Counted from the stretch's first letter, positions 1-14,631 are shown. The stretch: 64,000 nucleotides of DNA from an uncultured bacterium (GCA_964591275.1 CAZQAE010000023.1:6333-70332); one strand, 5' to 3'. Notes: a model not told the origin generated them from the sequence alone. A program made the numbers and translations.

Positions 1-1288
1 AGAATATGTTCTTCAGCACATCGAGCGCCTTGATGCCGTTCTCACCACCGATCTCGATTCGAGACTGGGGGACCGATGCCACAACGAGTGTCCTGGGAGC
101 AGCCTTTGCGGCCTCGGTCAACGCCTGAGCAAAGCTTCCCTGTGAGTCGAATGTACCCGCTGGCAGATCGTTCTTGTCGAAGAGCTGCCGTGCATAAGCT
201 ACCCACTCATCGATGAGAATAAGGCAGGGACTGTAAGCACGAAAGAGCTTGCTCAAGGTATCTGAACCAGGGCTGGTTCCATTTTTATCGGAGTCAGCGA
301 CCATCGCGTAGCCCGGGGCTTTCCCGAGTTGCCATGCCATCTCACCCCAGATGGTGCGAACTTCGGTGCCATCAGACTTTACCGATACTTCTCCGGGTGA
401 AAGCGCCGTGCCCACAAGCACCGCACGGTTGGCTTTGGGAGCGACGTTCACTCCCGCGTCTGAAAGAACCGGTTCAATGCCTTCCAGGCTTCCAGTCTCC
501 ACCCCGCTGAAGAGGTGAAAGAGAGCGAGCATGGAGTGCGTCTTTCCGCCTCCGAAGTTGGTTTGAAGTTCAAGCACGGGGTCACCCCCGGAATCATTCA
601 TGCGTTGTAGAGCTCCGGCCAGGAGGTCCCGCAAACCGATTGTTATGTAAGTTCGGCGATAGAACTCGTGCGGATCGAGGTACTCCTCTGATCCCCGGTC
701 CTGGTAAACCTGCGCCAGGTCCGCCGCGAATTCAGCCTGCATATACTGTCCCGAGGCCACATCTTTGTGAGGGCTGATGATCTCCCGCCAAGGTTTCAGC
801 CCGGCCTGCGGCATCCCATCCAGATTTAGCTGCTGATAGCGCGTCTTGTTACGAGCTTGCTCCTGGAAAACCTGCCTCTGGAGGTCCACTCGCAGCGTGC
901 CGAGCTCTTCGGCAGGGTCAAAGGCGGAAACGGCCTGCAAGAGCCTTTGCATGGTATCGAGAGCGCGGTAGACATCATCTGAATTGAAGGGCTTTTCGTG
1001 TGCCCACTTGTTGCGGACCTCAATCAGCTCACCCACATAGGATCGCTCAACGTGCCCGAGCACATAGCGGAACACACTCTGCCAGTTGCCAGTCATCGCC
1101 ACGAAGAGCGCTTGAGTGTCCCAATGGATGCTATCTCCATCGCGCCTGATGCCTCGGATACGATTTGTGACATCATCAACCCAATAGCTGCCGAGCTTTG
1201 ACTTCAACTCTCGCTCAACAAAGGGGGTCAGCCCAGTTTTGGTATGGTCGAGTCCTTTGCGGATTCGGTCCCTGTTACTCATGGTCAT
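1..1288 (-). CDS. DUF499-family P-loop ATPase with N-terminal Swt1-like HEPN domain. This is the 5' 429 codons only; the gene runs off the window start.
   Basis: I translated the minus strand by hand from ATG at 1288-1286 (MTMSNRDRIRKG...). It has an Rx4H HEPN motif (EVRNKWAHEKPF) near residue 85 and a Walker A motif TNFGGGKTHS near residue 245. It lies 12 nt downstream of the methylase stop. It is absent from the ORF track because it has no stop inside the window. Confidence 0.7.
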   Translation of the reverse strand, partial: MTMSNRDRIRKGLDHTKTGLTPFVERELKSKLGSYWVDDVTNRIRGIRRDGDSIHWDTQALFVAMTGNWQSVFRYVLGHVERSYVGELIEVRNKWAHEKPFNSDDVYRALDTMQRLLQAVSAFDPAEELGTLRVDLQRQVFQEQARNKTRYQQLNLDGMPQAGLKPWREIISPHKDVASGQYMQAEFAADLAQVYQDRGSEEYLDPHEFYRRTYITIGLRDLLAGALQRMNDSGGDPVLELQTNFGGGKTHSMLALFHLFSGVETGSLEGIEPVLSDAGVNVAPKANRAVLVGTALSPGEVSVKSDGTEVRTIWGEMAWQLGKAPGYAMVADSDKNGTSPGSDTLSKLFRAYSPCLILIDEWVAYARQLFDKNDLPAGTFDSQGSFAQALTEAAKAAPRTLVVASVPQSRIEIGGENGIKALDVLKNIF

Positions 1289-1300
1289 TGTTCAATTCCC

Positions 1301-4150
1301 TCAATCAAAGAGTTCAGCCTGCGTGCCGGATGTAGACGTGGATTCGGTTTTACTGGCAAGCTTCTCCAACTCCGGCCATGCGATAACCAGGCCGTTGTAA
1401 GCACGAGCTTCCTCAGCCCACTTGTTGCGCTCGCAAGTAGTGTAGAGACGGTAGGCAAGGTTCCGCGCCTGCTCCGCCATTGGGCCAAGCTTCTTCAAAA
1501 GCGTTGCTGCGGCCTCCTCGCCGTCTTCTTCCAGTCGTTTGATAAGATGCTGGGTCGCCTCCCAGACCGTAAGACGCTTGTCGGCCTCCGGGTCCCAATC
1601 TTTGGGCAATTCTGCTCGTGTGAAGAGCCGGACCTTGCCTGCGGCGGAGTGAAGGACGCCTGCCTCTTGCACACCCTGCACGGATACGTTTCGGGCACGA
1701 GCAAGATTATCGGCCTCTCCGAAGGGACCGGCCTGGTATTGGTGGGTCTCGAACCAGGTCACGGCAAAGCGGGTGTCACCGTCGAGTGCGCCCTCTTCAG
1801 CACCCAAAGATTCGTCGAGCACCTGGTTGATAAGTTGGAGGGCACTTCGAACCGTCATAGCCGAGCCGTCGGCCTCGATGACTTTCTTGTACTTGGAGAA
1901 AACCGCCATGCCTGGGCCGATGGAGGATTGAGCGAGGTCAACGGGAGCAATGTTGCTCTTCTGGAGGTTTTGGAGTGCGCTGGGAAGCTCGGCGCGAAGA
2001 GTACGAATGAAGTCGCGGCGGGTTGTTATCGGTGCGTCCTCTGGGCGCTTGCGGCAGACGAGCACGATGCTAGAAGCAAGCACATTGCTCCCAGTCTTCA
2101 AACCTTGGTCGCGCTCCGTGCGTATGGGCCATGTACCAATTATGTTTAATCCAGCCTCTATGACAGCATCTAGGAAAGTTTCCCAACCAGTGCTAACAGT
2201 GCCTTCATCTTTTTTGCTTTCAGATTGCTTAAAGGCGTAGTAGATGGTCACAGGAAAAGCAGGGTGAGCTTGTTCTGCGATCCGTTGCATCGCCGAAGTC
2301 ATCCCACCCATGAAAAATTTCTCAGCTTGTACTTTTCCACCATGACGATGGGCAGCCGACACCAGTTCCTCAGACTTGGGAACCACTATGGTACTGAGTA
2401 GTTTTGGATATATATCCTTAAGGCAGGGTCGAAGCCAAACATAAAAGAAGTCTGATAGCTCTGCGTACCCAATATTATCGAAGTATGGTGGATCCGTAGA
2501 AACAATCCGCCTTTTACTTTGAATTTGCTTTTGTGCGTCCATTTGGACAGCAATACCAACCTGCGAAGCAGGTAAGGAAGTTTCAAGCACTTTGCAAATC
2601 CAGTTGATTGCACCCGACCAGTTGCCAGTCGAATCTGAAAACGGATTTGCTTCAGCATGGTCCCACACCATCCGAAGTGCGTTACGTCCAAATGTCTGTA
2701 CGATAAAATTGCCTGCCCATGGTGTTAGAGAAGACCAATAGTTGACACTACGTCCAACACCGAGTCCAGTGTAGGTAGCGATTGCATCAGCATAATCATG
2801 AGCAAAACTATCAGCGTCACTGTATCCCAATCGCGGAGCGCGATAAAAGTCTATTGCTGCATCTTTCCGCACCTTCTTCCAACACTCTCGCACTAACTCA
2901 CTAAACGTGACGAGTGCAGTTTGCTGTCGGGAAGTAAATGCATCACCCCATTGAAACATTCCGTACATCGGCAACCTATCGACATCATGGCATTTTGTTG
3001 GAACTGGAATGTTGGGCTTCCCAATAGGCTCTGGCGGAAAAGCCAAGGACTCCGATTGACTCTGTGGATCAAGAAAAACACGCTCCGACCTACCTTCCGC
3101 AATTATCGCTAAAAGGCGTCGCCCCATTCTTCCTGCCTGAGCTTCGGAACGAATGTATGCAGTATTGATAACAGAGCCAGATATTAGACATTGAAAAACT
3201 CCACGGCCTGTCTTAGTACCAGATTTAGAGATCATTGGGTGGAGTGGTACTCTGCGTCGTATTCTAAATAAATAAACGCTGCCATTAACGATTGGTTCAA
3301 CATAGGCTTCTTTCCCTTTTATTGTACTGAGTATAAAAGTAGAAATCAATGGCACGTCCACCTGACTAAACGCTGGATTTGGACTCTTCACCGTCCTTGC
3401 CCAAAGCCAGGCAATCACCGTAAGTTCTTGCCCGCGATATTTCTCAAGATCAGGACGCTCGGTGACCATTTCATTCGTGATTTTAACTTTTGGGTATAAG
3501 TGTCCAATTCGCTCATCAGCCTCGTCTCGCATCCACTCGGCATAATAGCGAACGTCCTCGGCAAGACCACCCGCACTCTTCCACTCCTTTTCAATGAGTG
3601 ATTTCTTACTGTGAGCTTCGAGGTTCACGGGCGGCATCCCTGCAAACTTGGGGGGGATTTCAATCATTGCCTTGTTAATAAGTACTGCAACCGGGTTCAG
3701 GTCTGATGCGCAGGACTCCAATCCCAATCGTTGAGCTTCCAAAGGTAATGTGCCACCGCCTGCAAAGGGGTCGTGGAAGGCGGGAAGCTTTTCTGGATCT
3801 TCCCCCGTCTCCTCACAAGTTCGTGCCCATGATTTCTTGATCTCGGCCCGAGCCTGATTGAGCACCTCTTCGTTGTTGGTGTTCTCCCACTTCACCAGTT
3901 CACGAATCAGATCAAAGAGGCGTTCTCGCTCTTTCACTACTTCTTCATCGCTGAGTCCCGGAATGGAGCCTGGATCGTCCACCATCTGGGCAAAGATAAC
4001 AGCTCGTGCTGCTGCGAGAGGGCGCCGTGCCCACCACAGATGCAGGGTGCTTGGGTGACCATGCCGAATTGACTTTTCGCGTTTACAGGCGGCGTTGATA
4101 TCATCAAGAGGGAGCGCCACCTCAATCAGCTTCTTTCGAGAAGTACTCAT
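1301..4150 (-). CDS. DUF1156 (COG1743) DNA methyltransferase, N6-adenine/N4-cytosine type, 949 aa
   Basis: The N-terminus (KKLIEVALPLDDINAACKREKSIRHGHPSTLHLWWARRPLAAARAV) matches the DUF1156 signature. SAM motif I is DPFAGGGTLPLEA and catalytic motif IV is STDPPYFDNIGY. Confidence 0.85.
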   Translation of the reverse strand: MSTSRKKLIEVALPLDDINAACKREKSIRHGHPSTLHLWWARRPLAAARAVIFAQMVDDPGSIPGLSDEEVVKERERLFDLIRELVKWENTNNEEVLNQARAEIKKSWARTCEETGEDPEKLPAFHDPFAGGGTLPLEAQRLGLESCASDLNPVAVLINKAMIEIPPKFAGMPPVNLEAHSKKSLIEKEWKSAGGLAEDVRYYAEWMRDEADERIGHLYPKVKITNEMVTERPDLEKYRGQELTVIAWLWARTVKSPNPAFSQVDVPLISTFILSTIKGKEAYVEPIVNGSVYLFRIRRRVPLHPMISKSGTKTGRGVFQCLISGSVINTAYIRSEAQAGRMGRRLLAIIAEGRSERVFLDPQSQSESLAFPPEPIGKPNIPVPTKCHDVDRLPMYGMFQWGDAFTSRQQTALVTFSELVRECWKKVRKDAAIDFYRAPRLGYSDADSFAHDYADAIATYTGLGVGRSVNYWSSLTPWAGNFIVQTFGRNALRMVWDHAEANPFSDSTGNWSGAINWICKVLETSLPASQVGIAVQMDAQKQIQSKRRIVSTDPPYFDNIGYAELSDFFYVWLRPCLKDIYPKLLSTIVVPKSEELVSAAHRHGGKVQAEKFFMGGMTSAMQRIAEQAHPAFPVTIYYAFKQSESKKDEGTVSTGWETFLDAVIEAGLNIIGTWPIRTERDQGLKTGSNVLASSIVLVCRKRPEDAPITTRRDFIRTLRAELPSALQNLQKSNIAPVDLAQSSIGPGMAVFSKYKKVIEADGSAMTVRSALQLINQVLDESLGAEEGALDGDTRFAVTWFETHQYQAGPFGEADNLARARNVSVQGVQEAGVLHSAAGKVRLFTRAELPKDWDPEADKRLTVWEATQHLIKRLEEDGEEAAATLLKKLGPMAEQARNLAYRLYTTCERNKWAEEARAYNGLVIAWPELEKLASKTESTSTSGTQAELFD

Positions 4151-4614
4151 GTGGATGCCTTCTTCAGTTTAAATGATGATTTGGCACAAAGGAACTTCTC
4201 GCCTGGACCAGACAAGTAGAGAAAGCTCTGTGGTGGATGGAATCGACCCGCTTCGCTAAGCTTACGAAGCCCTTGAGGAGTGGAAGCATGTTCGTAGGCA
4301 CCCAAGACAAATACACCTAGTGTTTCACAGTTTGCACAATAGCTTTTGACTTCTTCTCTCGAAAGACAGAAGAGCTTATGTTGCTGCAGAGCCTCATCTC
4401 TCGTGATCGCACCAATCTTGATTATCGGTGCTCTTCCAACGATGGCTGAAACAGGTGCCTTCGCCCAAAGATATATCCAATCGGGCGTACCTGTGCGTGG
4501 ATATCGTTTCCTAATCACTCGTTTTAATGAACCGTTGCTGATCTTCTCCAGGTCGGTGGGAGAAAAGGAAACGACAACAGAACATAAACGCGATTCTGCT
4601 TTGAAAGTGATCAT
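4147..4614 (-). CDS. Small (155 aa) PUA-like/ASCH-like protein, occupying the slot usually taken by DUF3780 in DUF499/DUF1156 cassettes
   Basis: It overlaps the methylase start (4147-4150) and the helicase stop (4611-4614) by 4 nt each, so it is translationally coupled. The segment ISNGSLKRVIRKRYP...IVGRAPIIKIGAI resembles the ASCH beta-barrel N-terminus (IlsGkKtiEiRk). The family assignment is tentative. Confidence 0.45.
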   Translation of the reverse strand: MITFKAESRLCSVVVSFSPTDLEKISNGSLKRVIRKRYPRTGTPDWIYLWAKAPVSAIVGRAPIIKIGAITRDEALQQHKLFCLSREEVKSYCANCETLGVFVLGAYEHASTPQGLRKLSEAGRFHPPQSFLYLSGPGEKFLCAKSSFKLKKAST

Positions 4615-7600
4615 GCGGGTGTCGCTCCATGATTCAGTAGATCATCCAGCTTGTAGGCCGTTGCTACTTCGCCAAACCCGGGTTCTTTGAATGGGAAGGC
4701 GCGGATGTAGGTCAGCTCGGATACTGCATCCCCATAGATTATGGCTACTGCCAGAATGAACTGGTCGGGCGCGTTCACAGCACACCGTACTTCGTTAGTA
4801 GTCAGCGTGACCTTATCTGCACCCTTGGCTCTGCCCTTCACCTCAATGAAGCGAAGTGTGCCTTCGGCGTCCTGGGACTCAATGTCGTAGCCAATACCTT
4901 TTGTGGCGCTCACGTCTTTAGGAACGCAGTCCAGAGAGCGCTCAGCCTCCATAACCGCTGCCATCGCCAACGCCTCAACCCGCTTACGTGCCTCAGCATC
5001 TACTCCGTCATCAGGCGAAACCGGTGCATGGCCCTGGTGCTTCAGCAAGAGTCCCGCGGGGATAATGAGCGCGCCACCTTTGACCTGCGGTGGACCCGCC
5101 ATGATCTGCCTCTCCTTTTGCAGCTCATCCAGTCGTGACTGGAGCCGGTCAGCGAGCTTGTCGGCGCGTTCCTGCGCAACGTGGGCAGGTAGTCGAGTGT
5201 TCTTGCCGGCACGTTCCTTGTGTTTGAGCATCTGGGCGCGGTGATCCCAATGGTTGATCTCTTTTGTGAGCCGAGCCTTGACCTGCTGCTCCACGCGATC
5301 GGTCTGCTCCATACGCTGTGCTTTGATCTCATTTACATGCTCAGGGATCACATCGGTGATGGCGTATCCCATGACCTCGTTGTCCCAGTCTTGCCGCAGC
5401 CACTGCGCGTCCAACTCGGCTTCAATCAAGGAGTGTTCGTTTTCGGCCAAAGGACGGTAATCAAGATAGGGCGCTGCGCCTGCTGATCGGTAGTTGCCGT
5501 CGGGTCCAACCTCAACAAACTGAAGGCGCTTGGAGATGGTCAGGAAGTCCCCGTCTCGACCCCGACGACCATCATGGATTTCGTGCTCCAGGTAGAAGAG
5601 TATTCGTGGCGTCTCACTCGCGTCAGCTTCATCCACCAAGACAGCACCACGCTTCATCAGCTCGCCGTGCTTTTCTAGGACGAGGTCGATGGTGGCATCA
5701 AGAAGCGGGCTGCCAGGGCAGACCAGTTCGGCGCGAGGCTGCTGGTCAACCATGTCTTTCTCGAAACATATGCGCTCGTAACGTTCACCAAGCGGGGCGC
5801 CCATTCCTATCTGCCGATCCCGGCGACGCAGAGCTACAGGGACACGGGAGACCTCCCATCGGCCCGACTCACGGCGGTGGACCTTACCACCCAGGCGGGG
5901 GAAGGCATCGAGGAAGAAGGCTTGAATGAAGTGAGGCTGGAGTCTGCGGGCATGGGCGCGTTCCATCTCCTCTCGGATGCTCTGAATGTGCGTGGTGTCC
6001 ATCGAGTCGTTGACCAAAGCCCTTTCATCGAGAATCTCCAGGAGATGGTCATGGTTGATGACGCCGTCTACCGCTTCGTTGAGGCGTGCCTTGACCTCGG
6101 GGTCGTTGCCGTAGCAAATCGCATCCATGAGCATCTCACGAAGGGCTTTCTGATCGAAGAGCCTGCCGAGTACGTCGTAGACCTTGCCGCCGAGGGCTTC
6201 ACGCTCGGCTTCGAGCTTCTCCAGCAGGCGGACGTATACATCGCCCTCACGGGTATCTTTGGCGATCAAGTTCCACAAGTGACAGACCTCGGCCTGGCCG
6301 ATGCGGTGAATGCGACCGAAGCGCTGTTCCAGTCGGTTAGGATTCCAGGGCAAATCGTAGTTCACCATCAGGTGCGACCTCTGGAGGTTCACACCTTCGC
6401 CCGCGGCATCGTTGGCGACCAACACCAGGACTTCGGGGTCGTTCATGAACCCATTGACGATACTGCGTCGCTCTTCTCGGGTTACGGACCCGTGTATCTC
6501 TACGACGGCCTTGTCCCGCCCGAGCCGGTTTCGGATACGTCTGCCAAGATAAAAAAGGGTGTCCTTGAACTCACTGAAGATGACCAGCTTTCGACGGTTC
6601 CCGTCATCATCTGTCATCAATGGATCATCAAGGATTGTACTGAGTTGGTTCCACTTGGCATCTTGGCCTGAGCGCACCACCGTCCGGGCAAGCCCTTCCA
6701 GTCGTTTGAGTGTCTCGATCTCAATCTGAAGTTCTTCGATGGTCGCCGCTGCTGTAGCGTTGTCGATGAGTTGGGTCTCAAGATCCTCCCGCTCCTCCTG
6801 GGGAGCCTCATCGTAGGCATCATCAAAGTTGTCCTCAGTTATACCATCGAGCACAGAGTCAGAAAACTCCAGCTTAGCCTTCTCACCCTTGAGCAGGATG
6901 CGCGCCTCACGCAGGCGGCTCTCCAGCTTCTCGTGACGGCGCTTGAGTGATCTATAGATAGACTCAGGAGACGAAGCCAGACGACGTTGGAGGATCATCA
7001 AGGCAAAGCCCACGTTGACACGCCGTGTCCCTTCTCCTTCAGCGAATCGCTCGGCCCGGTTCATCTCCTCGCGAACGTAGTCCGTTACTTCTGTATACAG
7101 AGCCGCCTCGGGCGCCGACAGGTCATACTGAACAGTGTAGGAACGGCGCTCGGGGAAGAGAGGTTTGCCGTCGAACTTGTAGAGGTCCTCTTTGACCAAG
7201 CGGCGCATTAGATCTGAGGGGTCAGGCGTATGGACACCATCACGGAATTTGCCCTCGAAACGATCGCTATCCAACAGGGCGAGGAAAATCTGAAAGTCCT
7301 CGTTCTTCCCATTGTGCGGGGTTGCTGTCATCAGAAGAAAGTTCCGACAGTGTCTACCAACCAACTGGCCCAGCTTGTATCTCTTGGTGAGTTTGACCTC
7401 GTTGCCGAAGTAATGGCCGCTCATCCGATGGGCTTCATCAACGATGATGAGATCCCACTCGGTGGCGTGTATAAACTTTTCCTGCAGATCTTCGTTGCGG
7501 GAGAGTTGGTCCATCCGAGCGATGAGGTAGTTGTTGTGGTCGAAAGGGTTGGCCGTGCGTGAGCTTTGAATCATTTCTCGGTTAAGCAGATCGAAGTTCA

Positions 7601-8129
7601 GCCCAAACTTTTCATATAGCTCGTCTTGCCATTGATCCGTAAGGGACCCGGGAGAGATAATAAGGCATCGCTTGAGGTCACCCCGAACCATTAGCTCCTT
7701 GATGAGGAGTCCGGCCATGATGGTCTTACCGGCGCCAGGATCATCTGCGAGAAGAAAGCGCATCGGCTGACGAGGCAGCATCTCTTCATAGACTGCTGAT
7801 ATTTGATGCGGCAAGGGCATGATGATGCTGGTGGTGATCGCAACATATGGATCAAACAGCCAAGCAAGATTGATCCGATACGCTTCTGAGACAAGACGAA
7901 GGAGCGCACCGTCCCCATCAAAGGACCAGGGCTTACCGCCGGCGACAACCTCGATGCCCGGTTCATCGTCACGATAGATGAGGCGTTCTCCATACTGGCC
8001 AGAGGAGTCCTTGTAGACAAGCTTCATTGCCTGGTCTCCGATCCACTCTGCCGAGACGACGGTCGCAACACCAGTGGGCGAGATGCCGCTCATCCGCGCT
8101 CCAGCAGTCAATTCCTCTAGCTTCGCCAT
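4611..8129 (-). CDS. SNF2-family DNA helicase (1172 aa) with C-terminal DUF3883-like (NO VEIN-type) domain
   Basis: Helicase motifs present are I (LLADDPGAGKT), II (IIVDEAHRM), V (VANDAAGEGVNLQ) and VI (QRFGRIHRIGQ). The C-terminal approximately 120 aa (GYDIESQDAEGTLRFIEVKGRAKG...) is typical of DUF3883 appended to defence helicases. Confidence 0.85.
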   Translation of the reverse strand: MAKLEELTAGARMSGISPTGVATVVSAEWIGDQAMKLVYKDSSGQYGERLIYRDDEPGIEVVAGGKPWSFDGDGALLRLVSEAYRINLAWLFDPYVAITTSIIMPLPHQISAVYEEMLPRQPMRFLLADDPGAGKTIMAGLLIKELMVRGDLKRCLIISPGSLTDQWQDELYEKFGLNFDLLNREMIQSSRTANPFDHNNYLIARMDQLSRNEDLQEKFIHATEWDLIIVDEAHRMSGHYFGNEVKLTKRYKLGQLVGRHCRNFLLMTATPHNGKNEDFQIFLALLDSDRFEGKFRDGVHTPDPSDLMRRLVKEDLYKFDGKPLFPERRSYTVQYDLSAPEAALYTEVTDYVREEMNRAERFAEGEGTRRVNVGFALMILQRRLASSPESIYRSLKRRHEKLESRLREARILLKGEKAKLEFSDSVLDGITEDNFDDAYDEAPQEEREDLETQLIDNATAAATIEELQIEIETLKRLEGLARTVVRSGQDAKWNQLSTILDDPLMTDDDGNRRKLVIFSEFKDTLFYLGRRIRNRLGRDKAVVEIHGSVTREERRSIVNGFMNDPEVLVLVANDAAGEGVNLQRSHLMVNYDLPWNPNRLEQRFGRIHRIGQAEVCHLWNLIAKDTREGDVYVRLLEKLEAEREALGGKVYDVLGRLFDQKALREMLMDAICYGNDPEVKARLNEAVDGVINHDHLLEILDERALVNDSMDTTHIQSIREEMERAHARRLQPHFIQAFFLDAFPRLGGKVHRRESGRWEVSRVPVALRRRDRQIGMGAPLGERYERICFEKDMVDQQPRAELVCPGSPLLDATIDLVLEKHGELMKRGAVLVDEADASETPRILFYLEHEIHDGRRGRDGDFLTISKRLQFVEVGPDGNYRSAGAAPYLDYRPLAENEHSLIEAELDAQWLRQDWDNEVMGYAITDVIPEHVNEIKAQRMEQTDRVEQQVKARLTKEINHWDHRAQMLKHKERAGKNTRLPAHVAQERADKLADRLQSRLDELQKERQIMAGPPQVKGGALIIPAGLLLKHQGHAPVSPDDGVDAEARKRVEALAMAAVMEAERSLDCVPKDVSATKGIGYDIESQDAEGTLRFIEVKGRAKGADKVTLTTNEVRCAVNAPDQFILAVAIIYGDAVSELTYIRAFPFKEPGFGEVATAYKLDDLLNHGATPA

Positions 8130-8344
8130 TCGTAAAATTCCTTTCCCATCCCTGGGGCGGGAGAAAGTAAATAGTACACATCAACATGGTCTGGGTTCAG
8201 GGGGAATTCGCGAACCGCCACGCCTTTAGTGGTGTGAAGATTCATCACGTCACGATTCTGGACAATCCACCCTGTCATGCCGAGCATCCCATCAATGACA
8301 ATGCGGGCTTTCTCTTCCGGAGTTTTAGCGCCGGGAGCGTTCAT
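8117..8344 (-). CDS. 75-aa ORF resembling the N-terminus of an HsdR-type restriction subunit (HSDR_N motif); probably a gene remnant
   Basis: EEKARIVIDGMLGMTGWIV resembles the HSDR_N consensus (ea.tR..IDp.L...GW.v). It overlaps the helicase start by 13 nt in another frame. It is too short to be a functional nuclease domain. Confidence 0.25.
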   Translation of the reverse strand: MNAPGAKTPEEKARIVIDGMLGMTGWIVQNRDVMNLHTTKGVAVREFPLNPDHVDVYYLLSPAPGMGKEFYEWRS

Positions 8345-8900
8345 AAATTTCCCCGTCAGTTTCGCTCAATCTGATAACCCGGCCAATCGAAGGGATACAA
8401 TGAATCCAGATTTCACATAACCTTCAAACGCGCCTGACATTAAAGCGATTTCAGATCATAGGCCTCCGGCGATTCAACGTCAACGCGCAGCGCCGATACT
8501 CCGCACACAAAAATCCGTACGCACGGTCAATTTCCACACACCGGAAAAAATAATACACCGACCGGCATTTCACCGGCTGAGTGGGTCCCCTTTAAGGCGA
8601 GCCGAAGTCCCGGGGCCTTGCTTTGTCAGCCCAGAGGTTCAGACGGTAGGTCGGAAGTATGCGGGCGGTTTCTCATCCCGCGACCCAACAGGGAGCTGGT
8701 CGAGCACGACGAGGAGGAGGCCGAGAGCGAAGACACCTTGAAGTGGACTGTGCCTATAACCGTGCCCAGAATAATGGCCCATAACGGGAACTAACCGGAA
8801 GTATCCGGAAGTAACGAGAGGTGCGTGGAATGCATAAAAGCGAGATAATGCAAGGGAAGCGCCGTAATCTCGCATAGTTAGATGTTTCCGTTCGTTAGGG

Positions 8901-8923
8901 TTCGAACCCCGTCGCCCGCTAAA
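8901..8923 (+). repeat. Copy 1 of a perfect 23-bp direct repeat TTCGAACCCCGTCGCCCGCTAAA (tRNA T-loop-like GGTTCGAACCCC)
   Basis: There is an exact match to 12763-12785. An imperfect TTTTCTCATTT(T) motif also occurs in both regions: at 8968-8979 (about 45 nt downstream of copy 1) and at 12741-12750 (about 12 nt upstream of copy 2). Confidence 0.8.
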
Positions 8924-8964
8924 TGAAAGATGGTCCATAAGGCATTGTTTTTGCGGGCCTTTTC

Positions 8965-9339
8965 TCATTTTACAAGCCTCAAATGACTGGATCTTTCAGG
9001 CCGTTGACAGATTTCTTGACAACTTTCTTGCTTTTCAAGCCCAGGGAGCAGGCGATCTACGGCGTCTTTCGCTGCCTGACCAGGGCTGTGCGTGTACCTC
9101 ATCGTGACACGAATATCGGAATGGCCAAGGATTTTTTGTACGACTTCAAACGAAGTCCCATTCAGAACGAGCAGCGAAGCGAAGGAATGCCGAATGTCGT
9201 GAAAGCGAATGCGCTTCAATCCCGCCTTCACGCAAACTCGATGAAAGGGTTTACGAAATGAATATGCCGTCACTTGGTGCCCCTCTGGACTCACAATTGG
9301 TGCTAAACGCCTATCAGCATCAGAGGATGATTCTCCCAA
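8965..9339 (-). pseudogene. Tyrosine recombinase (phage integrase family) C-terminal catalytic fragment, 124 codons; 5' part of gene missing
   Basis: It contains the HxxR box (HDIRHSFAS) and the catalytic Tyr region (VTMRYTHS). There is no N-terminal core-binding or arm-binding domain. The upstream DNA is occupied by the start of the 9404 gene. Confidence 0.7.
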
Positions 9340-9403
9340 TTTGCTATTTCATGTTTTTAAGTTCACCATTCGTTGAGAATTTTCAAATTGACGGGGATAA
9401 TAA

Positions 9404-12400
9404 ATGCGAACGCCGGTAATTTTTTGGACTTTGCTTTTGGCTTGCCTGCTTTCTTTTTCTATTTCGTGCGGCGGAGGCGGAGACGACGATGATTCCGATG
9501 ATGACGATGCTGGGGAAAGCGAATACGGGGCCTGCTGCGTCGATGGCGCCTGCTCAGTGACAACATACGCTGATTGTTCCGGTTCCTGGCAGGGACCGGG
9601 CACGAATTGCGATCCTAATCCGTGCGTTGACGACGACGTGGATGATGACGTTGACGACGATGTTGATGACGACGCGGATGATGACGTTGACGACGATGTT
9701 GATGACGACGCGGATGATGATACGGACGACGACACAGACGATGATGCGGACGATGACGTAGATGATGATGACACAACGGAGCCGACAACAACGACGACTG
9801 TCGAACCAACGACCACAACGACGCAGGAGCCGACCACGACGACCACGGTTGCACCGACGACAACAACGACGCAGGAGCCAACCACGACGACCACGGTTGC
9901 GCCAACAACCACAACGACGCAGGAGCCGACCACGACGACCACGGTTGAGCCAACAACCACAACAACCACGCAGGAACCGACCACAACGACAATTGTCACA
10001 ACAACTTCGACAACAACCACGACAGGGAATCCCGACGCCGAGGAAGTTATCGTGCCTGCAGGTACTTTTTGGATGGGTTGCGAACCGGACGACTCTGAAT
10101 GTGAATTAAATCCGAACGAACATCCTCGACACGAAGTAGAAATGTCGGAATACTACATTGACGTGTTTGAAGTAACCAATGAGAAATACGCCCAATACAT
10201 GAACCTGCATAATCCTTTGAATGATTGCTATGACTACACATGTGTGGAATCGTCTCATAAGGCCAGTAGCAAAGGGATATATGAGGAAAGCGGAGTCTGG
10301 ATGGTTGACGAAAGATATGAGTCTCGTCCTGTAGTTGGCGTAACATGGTATGGTGCGTTAGCGTATTGCGAAGCACAGGATAAGTCTTTGCCGACAGAAG
10401 CGCAATGGGAAAAAGCGGCAAAAGGTGGAGATGAGCATTACATCTATCCCTGGGGTAATACATGGAACTATTATTCGACTAACTGGGCCAATCAGATGGA
10501 CGAATATGAAAGAATTTCAGAGTTGCCGAAGACAACTCCAGTGGGTTATTTTAATGGCGACATTTATGATGAAGGTACTATGTGGGAATACCAAACCATG
10601 GATGGACGCAGTCCTTACGGAGCACATGACATGCTCGGCAATGTTGACGAATGGGTCTATGATAGCTATCAAGCTGATTACTATTCTCAAACGCCCGCTG
10701 GAGGTTGGGTAGATCCTGTTGGCCCGGATGAAGTCAACCGCAAGGTATTTAAGGGAGGTAACTGGAATAATTCAAATCCAAGCTGGGAACAGAGAAACAG
10801 CCTTAGAGAAAATGAGCTTTCTTTTGATTCCAATGGTAGAATCGGTTTTCGATGTGCATTTGCCTCACCAACGACTACTTCCACAACAACGACTACGATT
10901 GCACCAACAACGACAACCACGGTTGCACCGACGACCACAACCACGCAGGAACCGACCACGACAACCACGGTTGCGCCAACAACCACAACGACGCAGGATC
11001 CAACCACGACGACCACGGTTGCGCCAACAACCACAACGACGCAGAATCCGACCACAACAACTATCGAGACTACAACGACGACGGTTGCGCCGACCACGAC
11101 CACGACGACCACGTCCACAACGACAACAACGGCGTGTCCGGGATGTTACATTGGAGAGACTTGTTTGGCGGAAGATGAGGTTAATCCCGACAATATCTGC
11201 GAAATATGCAAACCCGATCAGGATCGCTTCGACTGGTCCTCAAACGACGGCGAATTGTGTGACGATGAAGAATTCTGCAACGGAACGGATGCCTGCCTGG
11301 AGCGCACTTGTTCCGATCATTCAGGCGACCCCTGCCCGGATGATGGCTTATGGTGCACCGGTGTGGAAGGCTGCAACGACATTCTTGAAGAATGTGAGCA
11401 GCTCAACATCCCGGAATGTCCTGATGACAACCTGTTCTGTACCGGAAATGAATTCTGCGACGAGGTAAATGATCTGTGCGACAGCGAAGGCGATCCATGC
11501 GAAGATGGAACGATTTGCGATGAAGAGAACAATGTTTGCGTGACGACAACGACGACGACAAGCACATCCACTTCGACAACGACAACCGTTGAAACTACAA
11601 CAACCACGACCCAGGAACCAACCACGACGACTACAGTAGAACCGACCACAACAACCACGACAGGGAATCCCGACGACGAGGAGGTTTCCGTGCCCGAGGG
11701 CGCATTCCAGATGGGTTGCGAGCCGGAGGATGAAAATTGCTCAAATAATGAATCGCCCCGCCACGAGGTCTGGTTGTCCGCGTATTCCATCGATACATAC
11801 GAAGTGACCAACGAAAGTTACGCGGAGTTTCTGACTTGGCACGGCAACGTCTGCGAGGGGTACGGGTGCGTGGGTGCGGATTCTTCTTCTCTGCGCCTCA
11901 GCGAATCCGACGGCGTCTGGTCAGTCGATTCCGGTTATGAAGATCATCCTCTGGTAGAAGTGACTTGGTACGGCGCAAGGGCTTATTGCGAGTCGCAAGG
12001 CAAGCGTTTGCCGACGGAAGCCGAGTGGGAAAAGGCCGCCAAGGGCGCTGCGGAACACTACATCTACCCTTGGGGCGACACGATGATCACCAATGCCGCA
12101 AATTACAGGGACTCCGGCGACCCCTACGATAATGATACGACGCCGGTTGGATACTTCGACGGCAGCGACCACGGCGGCGCGTATCAGACAACTGATGGAC
12201 GCAGTCCTTATGGCGCGCACGATATGGCTGGCAATGTGTGGGAATGGGTGAACGACTGGTACTCGTCAACCTACTATTCCACCAGCCCATCAACCGATCC
12301 TCCGGGACCGGTTTCCGGTGGGTACCGTGTTTTGCGCGGCGGTTGCCGGGGCTATGGTTTCATGTACCTGCGTGCGTCGGACCGGGCCTCGGGCGTCCCT

Positions 12401-12445
12401 CGCAACACGTACGGCTACTACGGGTTCCGTTGTTCCCGGGACTGA
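9404..12445 (+). CDS. 1013-aa secreted lipoprotein with a polyAsp linker, three Thr/Pro mucin-like repeat blocks, a Cys-rich module and two SUMF1/FGE-sulfatase-fold domains
   Basis: Signal/lipobox is LLSFSISC followed by GGGGDDDDSDDDD. Repeats are (EPTTTTTV/APTTTTTQ)n. FGE-fold motifs occur twice: PAGTFWMGCEP...RHEV...VTWYGALAYCEAQDKSLPTEAQWEKAAKG...YPWGN...GAHDMLGNVDEWV...FRC, and again around 11690-12440. Confidence 0.75.
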   Translation: MRTPVIFWTLLLACLLSFSISCGGGGDDDDSDDDDAGESEYGACCVDGACSVTTYADCSGSWQGPGTNCDPNPCVDDDVDDDVDDDVDDDADDDVDDDVDDDADDDTDDDTDDDADDDVDDDDTTEPTTTTTVEPTTTTTQEPTTTTTVAPTTTTTQEPTTTTTVAPTTTTTQEPTTTTTVEPTTTTTTQEPTTTTIVTTTSTTTTTGNPDAEEVIVPAGTFWMGCEPDDSECELNPNEHPRHEVEMSEYYIDVFEVTNEKYAQYMNLHNPLNDCYDYTCVESSHKASSKGIYEESGVWMVDERYESRPVVGVTWYGALAYCEAQDKSLPTEAQWEKAAKGGDEHYIYPWGNTWNYYSTNWANQMDEYERISELPKTTPVGYFNGDIYDEGTMWEYQTMDGRSPYGAHDMLGNVDEWVYDSYQADYYSQTPAGGWVDPVGPDEVNRKVFKGGNWNNSNPSWEQRNSLRENELSFDSNGRIGFRCAFASPTTTSTTTTTIAPTTTTTVAPTTTTTQEPTTTTTVAPTTTTTQDPTTTTTVAPTTTTTQNPTTTTIETTTTTVAPTTTTTTTSTTTTTACPGCYIGETCLAEDEVNPDNICEICKPDQDRFDWSSNDGELCDDEEFCNGTDACLERTCSDHSGDPCPDDGLWCTGVEGCNDILEECEQLNIPECPDDNLFCTGNEFCDEVNDLCDSEGDPCEDGTICDEENNVCVTTTTTTSTSTSTTTTVETTTTTTQEPTTTTTVEPTTTTTTGNPDDEEVSVPEGAFQMGCEPEDENCSNNESPRHEVWLSAYSIDTYEVTNESYAEFLTWHGNVCEGYGCVGADSSSLRLSESDGVWSVDSGYEDHPLVEVTWYGARAYCESQGKRLPTEAEWEKAAKGAAEHYIYPWGDTMITNAANYRDSGDPYDNDTTPVGYFDGSDHGGAYQTTDGRSPYGAHDMAGNVWEWVNDWYSSTYYSTSPSTDPPGPVSGGYRVLRGGCRGYGFMYLRASDRASGVPRNTYGYYGFRCSRD
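9771..10025 (+). repeat. Tandem 48-bp coding repeats (Thr/Pro-rich linker block 1)
   Basis: Reiterated ccgaccacgacgaccacggttgcgccaacaaccacaacgacgcaggag units. Block 2 lies at about 10863-11135 and block 3 at about 11540-11665. Confidence 0.8.
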
Positions 12446-12482
12446 TTTACCCTTGAGCTCTTTTACCCTTTGAAAGGGGTTT

Positions 12483-12503
12483 CCAAAGGGGTATCCCCTT
12501 TGG
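12483..12503 (+). other. Perfect 9-bp-stem hairpin CCAAAGGGG-TAT-CCCCTTTGG, 38 nt after the stop of the 9404 gene; no U-tract follows
   Basis: Read directly from the sequence. A second near-palindrome, CCCTTTGAAAGGGG, lies at 12466-12479. Confidence 0.6.
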
Positions 12504-12619
12504 TGGGACTTGGGGCGAAGATGAGAATCTTCATTTCAAGGGCGATGCCCGCCCCTACGGCGCAGCCTGGGACATTGGCGCTGATGAATGGACGCCGTGA
12601 TGGGTTTCTTTTTGCAGTT

Positions 12620-12631
12620 TGTCAATTGACA
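12620..12631 (+). promoter_or_regulatory. Perfect 12-bp palindrome TGTCAATTGACA (candidate dimeric protein-binding site)
   Basis: It is self-complementary and located in the non-coding stretch between the hairpins and repeat copy 2. Confidence 0.3.
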
Positions 12632-12762
12632 GATTTTCGGCGAATTTTCGTGCATTGAAACAAATTTTCCGGCACTGAAAACAACTTTGAAAGCGCCGTA
12701 AGTGATTGAAATAGTGGCAATGTGGCGTAATACCAGAGTTTTTCTCATTTCATCGATTCGCT

Positions 12763-12785
12763 TTCGAACCCCGTCGCCCGCTAAA
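12763..12785 (+). repeat. Copy 2 of the 23-bp direct repeat TTCGAACCCCGTCGCCCGCTAAA
   Basis: There is an exact match to 8901-8923. It is flanked by TTTTTCTCATTT (12740-12751) and TTTTTCTTATTTT (12826-12838). Confidence 0.8.
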
Positions 12786-12913
12786 GCGAAAAGGCCGGTA
12801 ACTACTGAAAGTTGCTGGCTTTTTCTTATTTTGCCCTTCGGAAACCTGTTGGTTTGCAACGAGTTTTCTACTAAAGTCGGCGATACTGACTCGCCGCCGC
12901 GATCACCGTCGAG

Positions 12914-13396
12914 TTGCGGCATTATATTCCGCAGGTCCGTCGCGTCATCGATCAGGCCGAACGCCGCGTACTCAAGGGTGAGACCCTCCCGCCCGCGGAG
13001 AAGCTCGTCTCCATCTTCGAGCCGCATACCGACATTATCGTCAAGGATCGGCGGGATACATACTTCGAACACAAGGTCGTGCTCACCGGCGGCGCTTCGG
13101 ATCTGCTCACCGATCTCGTTGTCGAAAAAGGCAATCCGGCGGACTCAAGTCTGGCCGAAAAGATGATCGTTCGGCAAAAAGAGATTTACGGACGTGCGCC
13201 GCGTCAGGCCGCCTTCGACGGCGGCTTTGCCTCCAAGGACAACCTGAAGGACATCAAGGCGCTCGACGTCAAAGACGTCGCCTTCCACAAGAAACGGGGA
13301 CTGAAGATCGACGACATGGCGAAGAGCGCCTGAGTCTATAAGCGCCTGCACAATTTCCGCACCGGAATCGAGGGCAAAGCTGCACGCAAAGCATGA
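12914..13396 (+). pseudogene. IS4/IS5-superfamily DDE transposase fragment, with no N-terminal third and an in-frame TGA at 13331
   Basis: The DxG(F/Y) box is AAFDGGFASKDNLKDI. After the internal stop the same frame continues as VYKRLHNFRTGIEGK, resembling the C-terminal YK..R..IE signature. Confidence 0.6.
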
Positions 13397-13622
13397 ATCC
13401 AATAGGGAGATGGCGCACCGGCAAGGCTCAATCAACGATTATTGCGCCTCATGCGACAACCGCATCAGCCAATCGGACTGCCCGGTCGCTCGAAAACCCC
13501 CATTACGGGACAGGAACTTATTAATTTTTTCTTTTCACAATTCTTTTGCTTTCGGGTATAATTTCGATGGCTCACGGTGAAAATTGTCTGTTGTGAATAT
13601 TTCACTCGGAGGTGATTGCGTT

Positions 13623-14522
13623 ATGAGTCCAAACCCTGCTCAGTTCCTTAACCTGGAACCTGAATTCACCAATCCAAAATTGGCCCAAACGGTTATTCTG
13701 CCCGTTCCTTACGAGGGAGGCGCCTCGCATGGAAAGGGCGCAGCGAACGGTCCGAGGGCCATTATCGAGGTTTCACGCAATATTGAACTCTACGATGAAG
13801 TCTACGGAAAAGAGATTCACACTGGCGGTATCGCAACATTAGCGCCTGTCGATACATCAGGAGATCCCCGGACAGTTATGGAAAATATCCGGGCGGAGGC
13901 GGCGAAGTGGATGAAAAACGGTAAATTCCTTATCGGTATCGGCGGAGATCATTCTGTCACCTTCGGCCTGTTTGGCGGCGTTCAAGAAGCGCATCCTGAC
14001 ATAGCGTGCATCCAGATCGATGCCCGCCCGGATTTGCGTAATATCTATGCGAATGATCCGCTCAGCCATGTCTGCGTGATGTCGCGGATTCGCGAACTTA
14101 AGGCCCAGACTCTTCACCTCGGCATTCGAAGCATGAACGCCGCTGAAGCGCAGCGTATTAAAAACGAGAAAATCGAAACCGTACGAATGCAGGAGTTCTA
14201 TCAGAAAAAAGTGGATATCGGAAGAATCCTGGCCACGATCGGCGAGCGGGTTTATCTCACTATTGACTTGGGTTGCCTGGATTGGTCGGTTATCCGCTCA
14301 ACCGGCACGCTGGAGCCGGGAGGCTTCACCTGGCGTGAAATGCTTGAGCTTCTCGATATGATTTTCAAAGACAAGAATGTTGTGGCCTGCGACGTGATGG
14401 AACTGGCTCCAAAAGAAAACGACGTCAACTCGGCCTTCGCCGCTGCCCGGCTCGTTTTCAAGCTCATCGCCATGAAGCACAGTATCGAGCACATTGTCCG
14501 CATGGATGGCCTGGTCATTTAA
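13623..14522 (+). CDS. Arginase/agmatinase-family ureohydrolase
   Basis: The manganese-ligand motifs GGDHSVT and DARPD are present, with an RBS GGAGGTGA 11 nt upstream of ATG 13623. The track ORF starts at 13584. Confidence 0.8.
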   Translation: MSPNPAQFLNLEPEFTNPKLAQTVILPVPYEGGASHGKGAANGPRAIIEVSRNIELYDEVYGKEIHTGGIATLAPVDTSGDPRTVMENIRAEAAKWMKNGKFLIGIGGDHSVTFGLFGGVQEAHPDIACIQIDARPDLRNIYANDPLSHVCVMSRIRELKAQTLHLGIRSMNAAEAQRIKNEKIETVRMQEFYQKKVDIGRILATIGERVYLTIDLGCLDWSVIRSTGTLEPGGFTWREMLELLDMIFKDKNVVACDVMELAPKENDVNSAFAAARLVFKLIAMKHSIEHIVRMDGLVI

Positions 14523-14631
14523 AGCGTCCGAAAAATAGCGAGGGCATCTCTTTTCACTTTGGGTCATGGCATAATTCTGTCTGTTCATGTATAGGCAAAT
14601 ATGGTTTGAATTGCTTTCCAGGAGTCTTCAT

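Follow-up and report, generated by a model that had tools for sequence, protein, structure and literature searches.

Which defence system is encoded by the four co-oriented genes at the start of this DNA from an uncultured bacterium, and what is the small gene that lies second among them? The whole stretch analysed here, hereafter the window, comprises 64,000 nucleotides (GCA_964591275.1 CAZQAE010000023.1:6333-70332). An earlier note had read the genes as a restriction-modification (RM)-like DUF499/DUF1156/SNF2-DUF3883 defence operon, which is borne out by Pfam and PADLOC matches, and had taken the system to be one that was predicted only computationally and had not been named. The latter view does not hold. 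An operon coding for HEPN-DUF499, methyltransferase (MTase) and SNF2-DUF3883 proteins was first noted in 2013 (Anantharaman et al., Ava_2192 family, PMC3710099), it was named Hma by Payne et al. in 2021 (PMC8565338) and renamed Type-1 BREX-related (BR) system by Rakesh & Krishnan in 2026 (PMC12839542), and an HmaA homologue has been characterised. The locus described here is a new copy of this already named anti-phage operon, and its sole unusual feature is a small and rare ASCH-fold gene.

Gene order and core proteins

An ORF scan yielded four co-oriented minus-strand genes in the order hmaA, a 155-aa gene, hmaB and hmaC, and no further minus-strand ORFs of similar length. The genes and domains are:

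8129..4611, minus strand: hmaA, 1172 aa, Swi2/Snf2 helicase with a C-terminal PD-(D/E)xK domain (Pfam SNF2-rel_dom, Helicase_C, NOV_C/DUF3883)
4722..4979, minus strand: predicted NOV_C/DUF3883 nuclease domain of HmaA, aa 1051-1136 (Pfam NOV_C, E=4e-20)
4614..4147, minus strand: stand-alone ASCH-fold (PUA-like) gene, 155 aa (profile search, AlphaFold2, Foldseek)
4150..1301, minus strand: hmaB, 949 aa, DUF1156-type DNA methyltransferase (Pfam DUF1156, E=9e-29)
1..1288, minus strand: 5' part of hmaC, the first 429 of 1100 aa, the rest lying beyond the window start; HEPN-fused DUF499 AAA+ ATPase
926..1258, minus strand: Swt1-like HEPN domain of HmaC, aa 11-121 (Pfam HEPN_Swt1, E=1e-33)

The four genes had been described as translationally coupled. 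Their common orientation stands, but only two of the three junctions, hmaA/155-aa gene and 155-aa gene/hmaB, are ATGA stop/start overlaps, whereas hmaB and hmaC are 12 nt apart. In the PADLOC definition of Hma, the genes share one orientation and neighbouring hma genes may be separated by up to three embedded ones. The layout found here agrees with this: the strand is the same throughout, hmaA and hmaB enclose a single embedded gene, and hmaB is followed directly by hmaC. The PADLOC profiles for HmaA, HmaB and HmaC were all matched at very high scores, HmaC in full by way of a near-identical metagenome contig (L001), which shares 99.5% identity with positions 1-14746 of the window and is the sole source of a complete hmaC. 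Inspection of the catalytic motifs of the three proteins found all of them intact.

HmaA matches the PADLOC HmaA profile (PDLC00659) with 1637 bits over positions 1-1169 of 1176 and contains the motifs GAGKT (132-136), DEAH (231-234) and QRFGRIHRIGQ (602-612). According to the earlier note, no PD-(D/E)xK endonuclease was visible in the operon; this is wrong, as the DUF3883/NOV_C tail of HmaA is a domain of this kind and looks active as a nuclease, with D1082 (in GYD), E1096 and K1098 (in IEVK) intact and E1113 likewise kept. These four residues correspond, as matched by motif and not by alignment, to D1084, E1104, K1106 and E1121 of the Halomonas HmaA protein, which protects Escherichia coli against T4 (Liu 2024, PMC11232893). 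Defence by the Halomonas protein is abolished by an R610A substitution in helicase motif VI as well as in a quadruple mutant of the four nuclease residues, and its C-terminal domain nicks supercoiled plasmid in the presence of Mn2+ (PMC11232893). Type-1 BR helicases have been described to possess an N-terminal TUDOR domain, an internal inactive REase domain and a C-terminal active PD-(D/E)xK REase domain, and the DUF499 ATPases of these systems carry an N-terminal HEPN endoRNase in the major variant and a C-terminal RRM (PMC12839542). Judging from the full-length profile coverage, it is likely that HmaA contains the TUDOR and inactive REase domains and HmaC the RRM.

The 429 residues of HmaC encoded in the window, which are identical to those of HmaC from L001, match PADLOC HmaC from aa 164 with 381 bits as well as the start of Pfam DUF499, and the complete 1100-aa protein matches positions 3-940 of 941 with 1025 bits. 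A Walker A motif (GGGKT, 246-250), a Walker B motif (LILIDE, 356-361) and, in the HEPN domain, an Rx4H motif (RNKWAH, aa 92-97) are present. HmaC is an ORC/Cdc6-like AAA+ ATPase of the DUF499 family that carries a Swt1-type HEPN domain at its N-terminus. The fourth gene had correctly been called a DUF499 P-loop ATPase, although only 429 aa of it lie inside the window. Most of the domain calls made for the four genes likewise agree with Pfam, the exception being the N-terminal HEPN domain, which was left out of the gene list and floated only as a possible restriction activity. In a survey of 80 metagenomic hmaB loci, HEPN was present on 43 of 64 HmaC proteins, consistent with the published occurrence in 1370 of 2446 taxa, and the fusion of HEPN to the DUF499 ATPase is a common form of Hma/Type-1 BR.

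HmaB matches the PADLOC HmaB profile (PDLC00660) with 1395 bits. Its motif I (FAGGG, 129-133) precedes motif IV (DPPY, 553-556), with a variable region in between, and both GC content and conservation are low across residues 200-650; compared with the rest of the operon, GC is reduced in the ASCH gene as well as in central hmaB. The hypervariable region of HmaB appears target-recognition-like, as would be expected for a modification enzyme that determines specificity.

We consider it very probable that the locus is an Hma, that is, a Type-1 BR system in its HEPN-fused form, with one embedded accessory gene and a proposed RM-like mechanism. It shares with these systems the A-B-C order on one strand, three full-length core proteins, a HEPN-fused DUF499 ATPase, an Snf2 helicase with a PD-(D/E)xK tail and a gene embedded at the hmaA-hmaB hotspot, and differs in having a stand-alone ASCH gene at this position. 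The order A-(ASCH)-B-C together with a HEPN-DUF499 protein was also found in five further loci (L004, L013, L017, L018 and L077), whose HmaA, HmaB and HmaC proteins are 44-75% identical to those of the window. The earlier note had named assignment by HMM searches to an already characterised system as an outcome that would speak against its reading. Our Pfam and PADLOC searches go halfway in this direction, as the system is already named and, with the protection of E. coli against T4 by an HmaA homologue, partly characterised, HmaB and HmaC having proposed roles only.

The neighbourhood cited in the earlier note is that of the Type-2 BR system, which combines DUF499, a DUF1156 MTase, DUF3780 and an HKD/PLD-Snf2 helicase. 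The window operon resembles it in its homologous ATPase, methyltransferase and helicase core and in the presence of a small fourth gene, but possesses a C-terminal PD-(D/E)xK domain in place of an HKD nuclease. DUF3780 is specific to this sister system, where in some cases it is joined to ASCH/PUA reader domains; it had been proposed as a search model for the four proteins, none of which matches it. PLD_Helicase and NCBIfam phospholipD_antiphage match only the helicase core of HmaA (106-171 bits, cut-off 1100), and the likewise Type-2-like NCBIfam models DUF1156_antiphage and DUF499_antiphage reach 107 bits (cut-off 1000) and 64 bits (cut-off 1200), respectively. Type-2 BR was rejected on the lack of a DUF3780 match and of an HKD/PLD nuclease and on profile scores far under the cut-offs. 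For the same reasons, and with an intact PD-(D/E)xK nuclease present, it is very improbable that the operon is an uncharacterised DUF499/DUF1156/DUF3780/COG0553 system of the Makarova type without an identifiable nuclease, even though DUF499, DUF1156 and a COG0553-type helicase are all there.

Two further systems were considered. Type-3 BREX (BrxC, PglXI, BrxHII, PglZ, BrxA, BrxF) has a homologous ATPase, methyltransferase and Snf2 helicase, whereas the operon described here differs from it by a predicted active nuclease on the helicase and a DUF1156 N-terminus on the methyltransferase. It was rejected because PglZ, BrxA and BrxF are absent beside the operon in the window and in L001, and because the BrxHII profile scores 302-315 bits as compared to 1637 bits for HmaA. 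DISARM was rejected as well: NCBIfam DISARM_DrmD reaches 369.7 bits (cut-off 610), and the other Drm genes are absent.

Flanks of the operon

Three features were noted upstream of hmaA:

8344..8117, minus strand: 75-aa ORF that overlaps the hmaA start by 13 nt and is called as a gene on L001; its membership in the operon is uncertain
8455..8483, minus strand: weak sigma-70-like promoter match (TTGACG-17-TATGAT, 10/12 positions), ~325 nt upstream of hmaA
9339..8965, minus strand: remnant of a tyrosine recombinase, truncated to the C-terminal catalytic part (Pfam Phage_integrase, E=3.5e-18, positions 97-168 of 172)

The 75-aa ORF, which we leave unassigned, has no match in Pfam, PADLOC or the PDB, related loci do not have it in front of hmaA, and the idea that it is an N-terminal HsdR fragment was rejected on these grounds. 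In a promoter and terminator scan, promoter-like sites were not above expectation in this region (6 versus 5.2 in shuffles).

The recombinase fragment lies ~840 nt upstream of hmaA and has a stop codon upstream of it; a plus-strand gene starts at 9404, upstream of the fragment. The truncated gene is a relic of mobility, and the decayed mobile DNA previously reported next to the operon amounts to this fragment and nothing more except two short ORFs that could not be assigned. One might ask whether the helicase and the ATPase are parts of a transposon, an integrative element or a conjugative module, given the presence of the recombinase fragment and the co-occurrence of phage integrases with 19% of hma loci. 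This origin, raised in the earlier note as a possible refutation, is extremely improbable: the recombinase is only a C-terminal fragment, the flanks examined yielded no genes for a transposase, a relaxase or type IV secretion, and HmaA, HmaB and HmaC each match, in full length, a profile specific to defence. The setting had also been called typical of a defence island. It is not a dense one, as the L001 flank and most neighbours are housekeeping genes; a Type IIG RM gene is located ~10 kb from the operon. The neighbourhood is rich in sulfatase genes.

The embedded ASCH-fold gene

The 155-aa protein has no match in Pfam even at E<=10, the Pfam ASCH model included. A profile built from 103 homologues, however, matches the ZmASCH structures from Zymomonas mobilis (PDB 5GUQ/5GUS) with E=1.3e-15, and an AlphaFold2 model of the protein (pLDDT 95.2) has ZmASCH as its top Foldseek matches (TM 0.77-0.86, E=1e-10), followed by TTHA0113, the TRIP4 ASCH domain, EVE and YqfB. 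The modelled structure identifies the protein as an ASCH (PUA-like) fold, with a predicted beta-barrel and flanking helices. It shares with ZmASCH the fold and the PPQS and R/Y motifs, but the two are only 22-24% identical. ZmASCH degrades ssRNA in vitro, for which the cleft residues Y47, K53 and S128 are required in RNA binding and cleavage; the corresponding residues here are W50, S56 and S130, so that two of the three differ and only the serine is kept. Most of the ASCH homologues have a tyrosine at the first cleft position, and the lysine is not conserved.

An insert at the hmaA-hmaB junction was present in 47 of 60 loci of the survey, in agreement with the published 62.7-66.5% of systems with embedded genes, whereas an ASCH gene was found in just 1 of the 73 sampled hmaB loci. 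The ASCH gene is therefore an uncommon accessory in a hotspot already known for insertions; in Hma, 434 embedded protein families have been reported (Payne et al. 2021, PMC8565338). We found no description of a stand-alone ASCH gene as an embedded gene in the Hma/BR literature searched. A search with a 12-sequence ASCH alignment yielded seven genomic loci, the closest being a Planctomycetota MAG; our impression, and no more than that, is that the sulfatase genes around the operon agree with such a relationship.

The position of the gene with respect to the methyltransferase is more regular. All 11 close ASCH homologues sampled (ten from ranks 1-100 of the homologues listed, down to E=2e-9, plus that of L004) lie directly upstream, and in the same orientation, of a gene for either HmaB or the type-3 BREX methyltransferase PglXI, the latter in L021, L023 and L024, and the stop and start codons often overlap. 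No description of this pairing was found in the literature on ASCH with Hma, BREX and PDC-M11, of which our coverage is incomplete. A comparable arrangement is known from archaeal COG1743 MTase - DUF499 - SWI2/SNF2-nuclease - EVE operons (Bell, Wolf & Koonin 2020), in which a stand-alone PUA-superfamily protein also accompanies the same three-gene restriction-like system; ours comes from a bacterium, has ASCH in place of EVE and carries the gene between those for the helicase and the methyltransferase.

We tentatively propose, at slightly less than even confidence, that the ASCH protein is an accessory module for binding nucleic acids or modified bases, which would work together with the methyltransferase. 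As a distinct possibility, though one we would not favour, it could be an independent cargo gene at the hmaA-hmaB hotspot, coding for a ZmASCH-like RNase or toxin-like effector or for a leftover B component of PDC-M11. The frequent occupation of the junction by other inserts, the many embedded families and the RNase activity of ZmASCH all fit this explanation, as do a weak match of the 155-aa protein to PADLOC PDC-M11B (E=5e-10) and the PDC-M11A GNAT-EVE genes that neighbour more distantly related homologues in L007-L010. PDC-M11 ((PIN)-GNAT-EVE plus ASCH) indeed has ASCH relatives as its B component, but no PDC-M11A match was found with PADLOC in the operon or its flanks, leaving the protein without a GNAT-EVE partner.

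The phylogenetic data also touch on this alternative. In a neighbour-joining tree of 85 HmaB sequences, with long branches and without support values, ASCH-positive loci appear in at least three places, and there is thus no clean ASCH-positive HmaB clade. Pairwise ASCH and HmaB identities are uncorrelated in a mirror-tree comparison (rho 0.02; 6 loci, 15 non-independent pairs), from which it follows that ASCH may be an independent embedded gene; the value for ASCH and HmaC (rho 0.68) comes from the same 6 loci and 15 non-independent pairs and is too weakly based to interpret. Against a cargo role stand the largely replaced RNA-cleavage residues and the location of 11 of 11 homologues in front of one methyltransferase family in two systems, which is unexpected of a free-standing gene.

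Returning to an accessory module, a more specific version, which we regard as somewhat unlikely, is that ASCH is a dedicated partner of the HmaB/PglXI family common to Hma and type-3 BREX. Such a partner would sense how DNA is modified (m6A or hypermodified phage bases) and gate methylation or the nuclease. In two loci with HmaA and HmaC proteins that are ~84% identical, the ASCH and HmaB proteins are only 35-48% identical. If ASCH were a dedicated partner, ASCH and the methyltransferase would make up a rapidly evolving module for specificity, framed by conserved hmaA and hmaC genes. The position upstream of the methyltransferase in two systems, the divergence of ASCH and HmaB and the low GC content together make a concrete hypothesis, and none of them alone is a discovery.

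Proposed mechanism and implications

As shown for the homologue, in which motif VI and the D/E/K residues are needed for this step, HmaA would translocate on invading DNA and nick or cut it with its C-terminal nuclease. HmaB may use its variable central region to recognise a sequence, at which it would methylate adenines and thereby mark host DNA as self. HmaC could assemble or load the complex on DNA and aid recognition of the invader, while its HEPN RNase might serve as a back-up effector that cuts RNA if restriction fails.

The DNA of T4 is already hypermodified, which makes this phage a weak test of escape through methylation by HmaB. In the sole published test of HmaB protection, T4 grown with over-expressed HmaB did not escape HmaA defence (Liu 2024, PMC11232893). 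The same study, which is the single experimental one, reported that HmaA alone is sufficient for defence and is not toxic without HmaB. For these three reasons, methylation-based discrimination between self and non-self remains a proposal.

These findings also fit an operon that acts mainly by abortive infection or dormancy, in which nicking by HmaA and the HEPN RNase of HmaC would arrest the cell and the methyltransferase would have a regulatory or other role. HEPN domains are typical suicide RNases. A non-canonical Abi-like phenotype has been described, with protection at an MOI of 0.2-2 and collapse at an MOI of 10 (Liu et al., PMC11232893). Nevertheless, we think this unlikely: hmaA and hmaB occur together in 85% of loci, the DPPY motif of HmaB is intact and its hypervariable region resembles one for target recognition, HEPN is absent from a third of HmaC proteins, and the escape test is weak for the reason given above.

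Taken together, the locus is one more example of Hma (Type-1 BR), which PADLOC would label automatically. It provides a compact natural test case for the roles of the methyltransferase and the HEPN-DUF499 ATPase in Hma/BR systems, and also for the question of whether PUA-like 'reader' proteins, here ASCH, are functional parts of these systems.

Architecture and identity of the operon

Four minus-strand genes lie at positions 1-8129 of the window, and the earlier note's description of a four-gene cassette was in this respect largely right:

8129..4611, minus strand: hmaA, 1172 aa
4614..4147, minus strand: small (ASCH) gene, 155 aa
4150..1301, minus strand: hmaB, 949 aa
start at 1288, continuing past the window start, minus strand: hmaC, 429 aa visible

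The hmaA/ASCH and ASCH/hmaB junctions are ATGA stop/start overlaps, and hmaB and hmaC are separated by a 12-nt spacer with GAGGG located 5' of the hmaC ATG. The full HmaC length of 1100 aa was read from L001, an ENA metagenome contig of 77.7 kb that is 99.5% identical to window positions 1-14746; the 429 HmaC residues in the window are identical to those of L001.

Pfam domains SNF2-rel_dom, Helicase_C and NOV_C (the former DUF3883) were found in HmaA, DUF1156 in HmaB, and HEPN_Swt1 (E=1e-33) followed by DUF499 in HmaC. The PADLOC-DB profiles assign all three large proteins over their full length, HmaC via L001: HmaA scores 1637 bits over residues 1-1169, HmaB 1395 bits, and HmaC 381 bits on the window fragment and 1025 bits on the full L001 protein, with the HmaC match beginning at residue 164, past the HEPN domain. 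The expected catalytic motifs form a complete set across the three proteins, namely GAGKT (132-136), DEAH (231-234), QRFGRIHRIGQ (602-612) and a PD-(D/E)xK triad, D1082 / E1096-x-K1098, plus E1113 in HmaA; FAGGG (129-133) and DPPY (553-556) in HmaB; and the HEPN motif RNKWAH (92-97), Walker A GGGKT (246-250) and Walker B LILIDE (356-361) in HmaC. Other identities were rejected: DrmD reached 370 bits against a cut-off of 610, BrxHII about 300 bits, far under the HmaA score, and the Type-2-like models (PLD-helicase, DUF1156_antiphage and DUF499_antiphage) 64-171 bits against cut-offs of 1000-1200. Judged by its sequence, the locus is a new instance of Hma, a known system that already has a name and has been characterised in part.

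An operon combining HEPN-DUF499, a methyltransferase and SNF2-DUF3883 was on record by 2013 (Anantharaman et al., PMC3710099). An operon of a COG1743 methyltransferase, DUF499 and a SWI2/SNF2-nuclease, together with stand-alone EVE proteins, has been seen in archaea (Bell et al., 2020). The system was named Hma in a study that found 1,638 instances in 26 phyla (Payne et al., 2021, PMC8565338), and embedded genes, belonging to 434 families, occur in 62.7% of Hma systems (Payne et al., 2024). It has since been reclassified as Type-1 BREX-related, with HEPN-fused ATPases in 1370/2446 taxa and a helicase fused to an REase in 79%, whereas DUF3780 and the HKD-helicase belong to a separate Type-2 system (Rakesh and Krishnan, 2026, PMC12839542). 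The earlier interpretation thus had the right kind of system but was outdated, and two of its points fail: a PD-(D/E)xK nuclease, reported as not visible, is present as the triad in the HmaA NOV_C domain, and the DUF3780 neighbourhood that it cited is a property of the sister system.

Surroundings of the operon

The following features lie upstream of hmaA or deeper in the window:

8117-8344, minus strand: 75-aa ORF sharing 13 nt with the start codon region of hmaA; a called gene on L001
9339..8965, minus strand: C-terminal fragment of a tyrosine recombinase
9404-12445, plus strand: 1013-aa protein with C-terminal FGE-sulfatase domains
18243-21563, minus strand: single-polypeptide Type IIG / Type ISP-like RM enzyme, 1106 aa, N6_Mtase and Type_ISP_C

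The 75-aa ORF, which could be a gene remnant or leader peptide, gave no match in Pfam, PADLOC or PDB and lacks a conserved counterpart in front of hmaA at other loci; a 109-aa ORF upstream of hmaA likewise gave no matches. The FGE-sulfatase-domain protein has an internal repetitive region with self-similar segments at ~9780-11055, and since it measures 1013 aa in the window and 969 aa in the 99.5%-identical L001, the repeat number is polymorphic. The Type IIG enzyme (PADLOC REase_MTase_IIG, 1169 bits) is encoded ~10 kb off the Hma operon with housekeeping genes between them. Deeper in the window are arginase, aminotransferase, MshEN-domain protein, peptidase and sulfatase genes, and beyond hmaC, as seen on L001, an FMN oxidoreductase and other non-defence genes.

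The locus is one inserted operon beside a recombinase relic, with a second RM gene ~10 kb off, and is not a dense defence island. The decayed mobile DNA described in the earlier note comes down to this single relic, accompanied by the two unmatched ORFs. Such a sparse neighbourhood agrees with the finding that Hma does not usually lie near other defence systems (Payne et al.).

The ASCH protein and the neighbouring methyltransferases

The 155-aa protein has no match in Pfam or NCBIfam and only a weak PADLOC match, to PDC-M11B (E=5e-10). An exhaustive HMMER search gave 286 representative homologue clusters at E<=1e-3, nearly all of them stand-alone proteins of 130-200 aa. A profile built from 103 homologues matches ZmASCH crystal structures (E=1.3e-15), and the AlphaFold2 model obtained with the same alignment (pLDDT 95.2) has ZmASCH as its best Foldseek match (TM 0.77-0.86), followed by other ASCH, EVE, YTH-like and McrB-N PUA-superfamily domains. 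The small protein therefore has an ASCH fold and is not DUF3780. ZmASCH is an Mg-dependent ssRNA nuclease in vitro that needs Y47, K53 and S128; as the corresponding residues here are W50, S56 and S130, RNase activity cannot be inferred.

In all 11 loci sampled (P0003, P0004, P0005, P0006, P0008, P0012, P0020, P0040, P0070 and P0100, from ranks 1-100 of the ASCH homologues, plus genomic locus L004), the ASCH gene is directly upstream of a large methyltransferase gene in the same orientation. The methyltransferase is the type-3 BREX PglXI for P0020, P0070 and P0100, and HmaB for the others (P0003, P0004, P0005, P0006, P0008, P0012, P0040, L004), where the preceding gene is hmaA wherever the contig extends far enough upstream. 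The simple order is broken in L004, where hmaA and ASCH are separated by additional embedded genes, and in P0005, a rearranged locus. In L024 (1-14631), type-3 BREX includes two PglXI genes that flank ASCH (BrxC - PglXI - ASCH - PglXI - BrxHII - PglZ), which suggests duplication or acquisition of an ASCH-methyltransferase module. Other results speak against ASCH as a part of the system. Of 80 metagenomic hmaB loci sampled, 73 extend far enough upstream, and only 1 of these contains ASCH; a different insert occupies the hmaA-hmaB junction in 47/60 loci. In an NJ tree, the HmaBs that accompany ASCH do not group together, pairwise identities among ASCH proteins do not track those of HmaB, and distant ASCH homologues (26-30% identity) adjoin PDC-M11A GNAT-EVE genes. 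We read ASCH as an accessory that is rare but truly favours the HmaB/PglXI methyltransferase family, and a functional link to the methyltransferase is plausible.

The related loci L013 and L018 share 83.6% identity in HmaA and 83.5% in HmaC, but only 47.7% in HmaB and 35.4% in ASCH; the window compared with either gives 72-75% for HmaA and HmaC, 52-54% for HmaB and 36-44% for ASCH. GC content in the window is 0.56 in hmaA and hmaC, whereas it dips to 0.464 in the ASCH gene and to 0.41-0.49 over HmaB residues ~200-650, where identity is 31-45% across most 50-aa blocks. This low-GC region falls between methyltransferase motifs I and IV, where the target-recognition insert has been sited (Rakesh and Krishnan, PMC12839542). 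The pattern fits, though it does not prove, a specificity module that evolves rapidly or is exchanged.

Two further observations concern related loci. The chimeric L016 (1-2880) contains an hmaB 3' end and a 61-aa hmaC 5' fragment (HEPN start) directly abutting a 94-aa hmaA 3' fragment, followed by ASCH and another hmaB. Recombination between two Hma operons seems to have moved the hmaA 3' end, ASCH and hmaB as a block. In the Planctomycetota locus L004 (7129-10459), a Schlafen/AlbA_2-HATPase_c_4 gene, a ParA-like AAA_31 gene and a 166-aa fragment with a DUF1156 N-terminus lie between hmaA and ASCH-hmaB. This fragment is an incomplete duplicate of hmaB, perhaps left behind when a cassette was inserted.

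Proposed mechanism

The only experiments on Hma are those with the Halomonas proteins (Liu et al., 2024, PMC11232893). HmaA alone protected E. coli from T4, and defence was abolished by R610A (motif VI) and by D1084A/E1104A/K1106A/E1121A; with Mn2+ present, the HmaA C-terminal domain nicked supercoiled plasmid, HmaA showed no toxicity when HmaB was absent, and HmaB-grown T4 did not escape. The same HmaA residues and motifs are intact in the window and the operon architecture is conserved. We propose that HmaA would provide defence dependent on its Snf2 motor and PD-(D/E)xK site through DNA nicking, as shown for the homologue. Going by family knowledge, HmaB (DPPY) may be an N6-adenine methyltransferase that marks self DNA, the ORC/Cdc6-like AAA+ protein HmaC might load or scaffold the complex and sense the invader, its HEPN domain could act as a back-up RNase, and ASCH might act together with the methyltransferase by binding nucleic acid or a modified base. 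The main conflict for this model is that, in the only experimental test, HmaA was sufficient and HmaB had no protective effect on T4 (Liu et al., 2024). As a small lead, the association of ASCH with the methyltransferase merits targeted experimental work.
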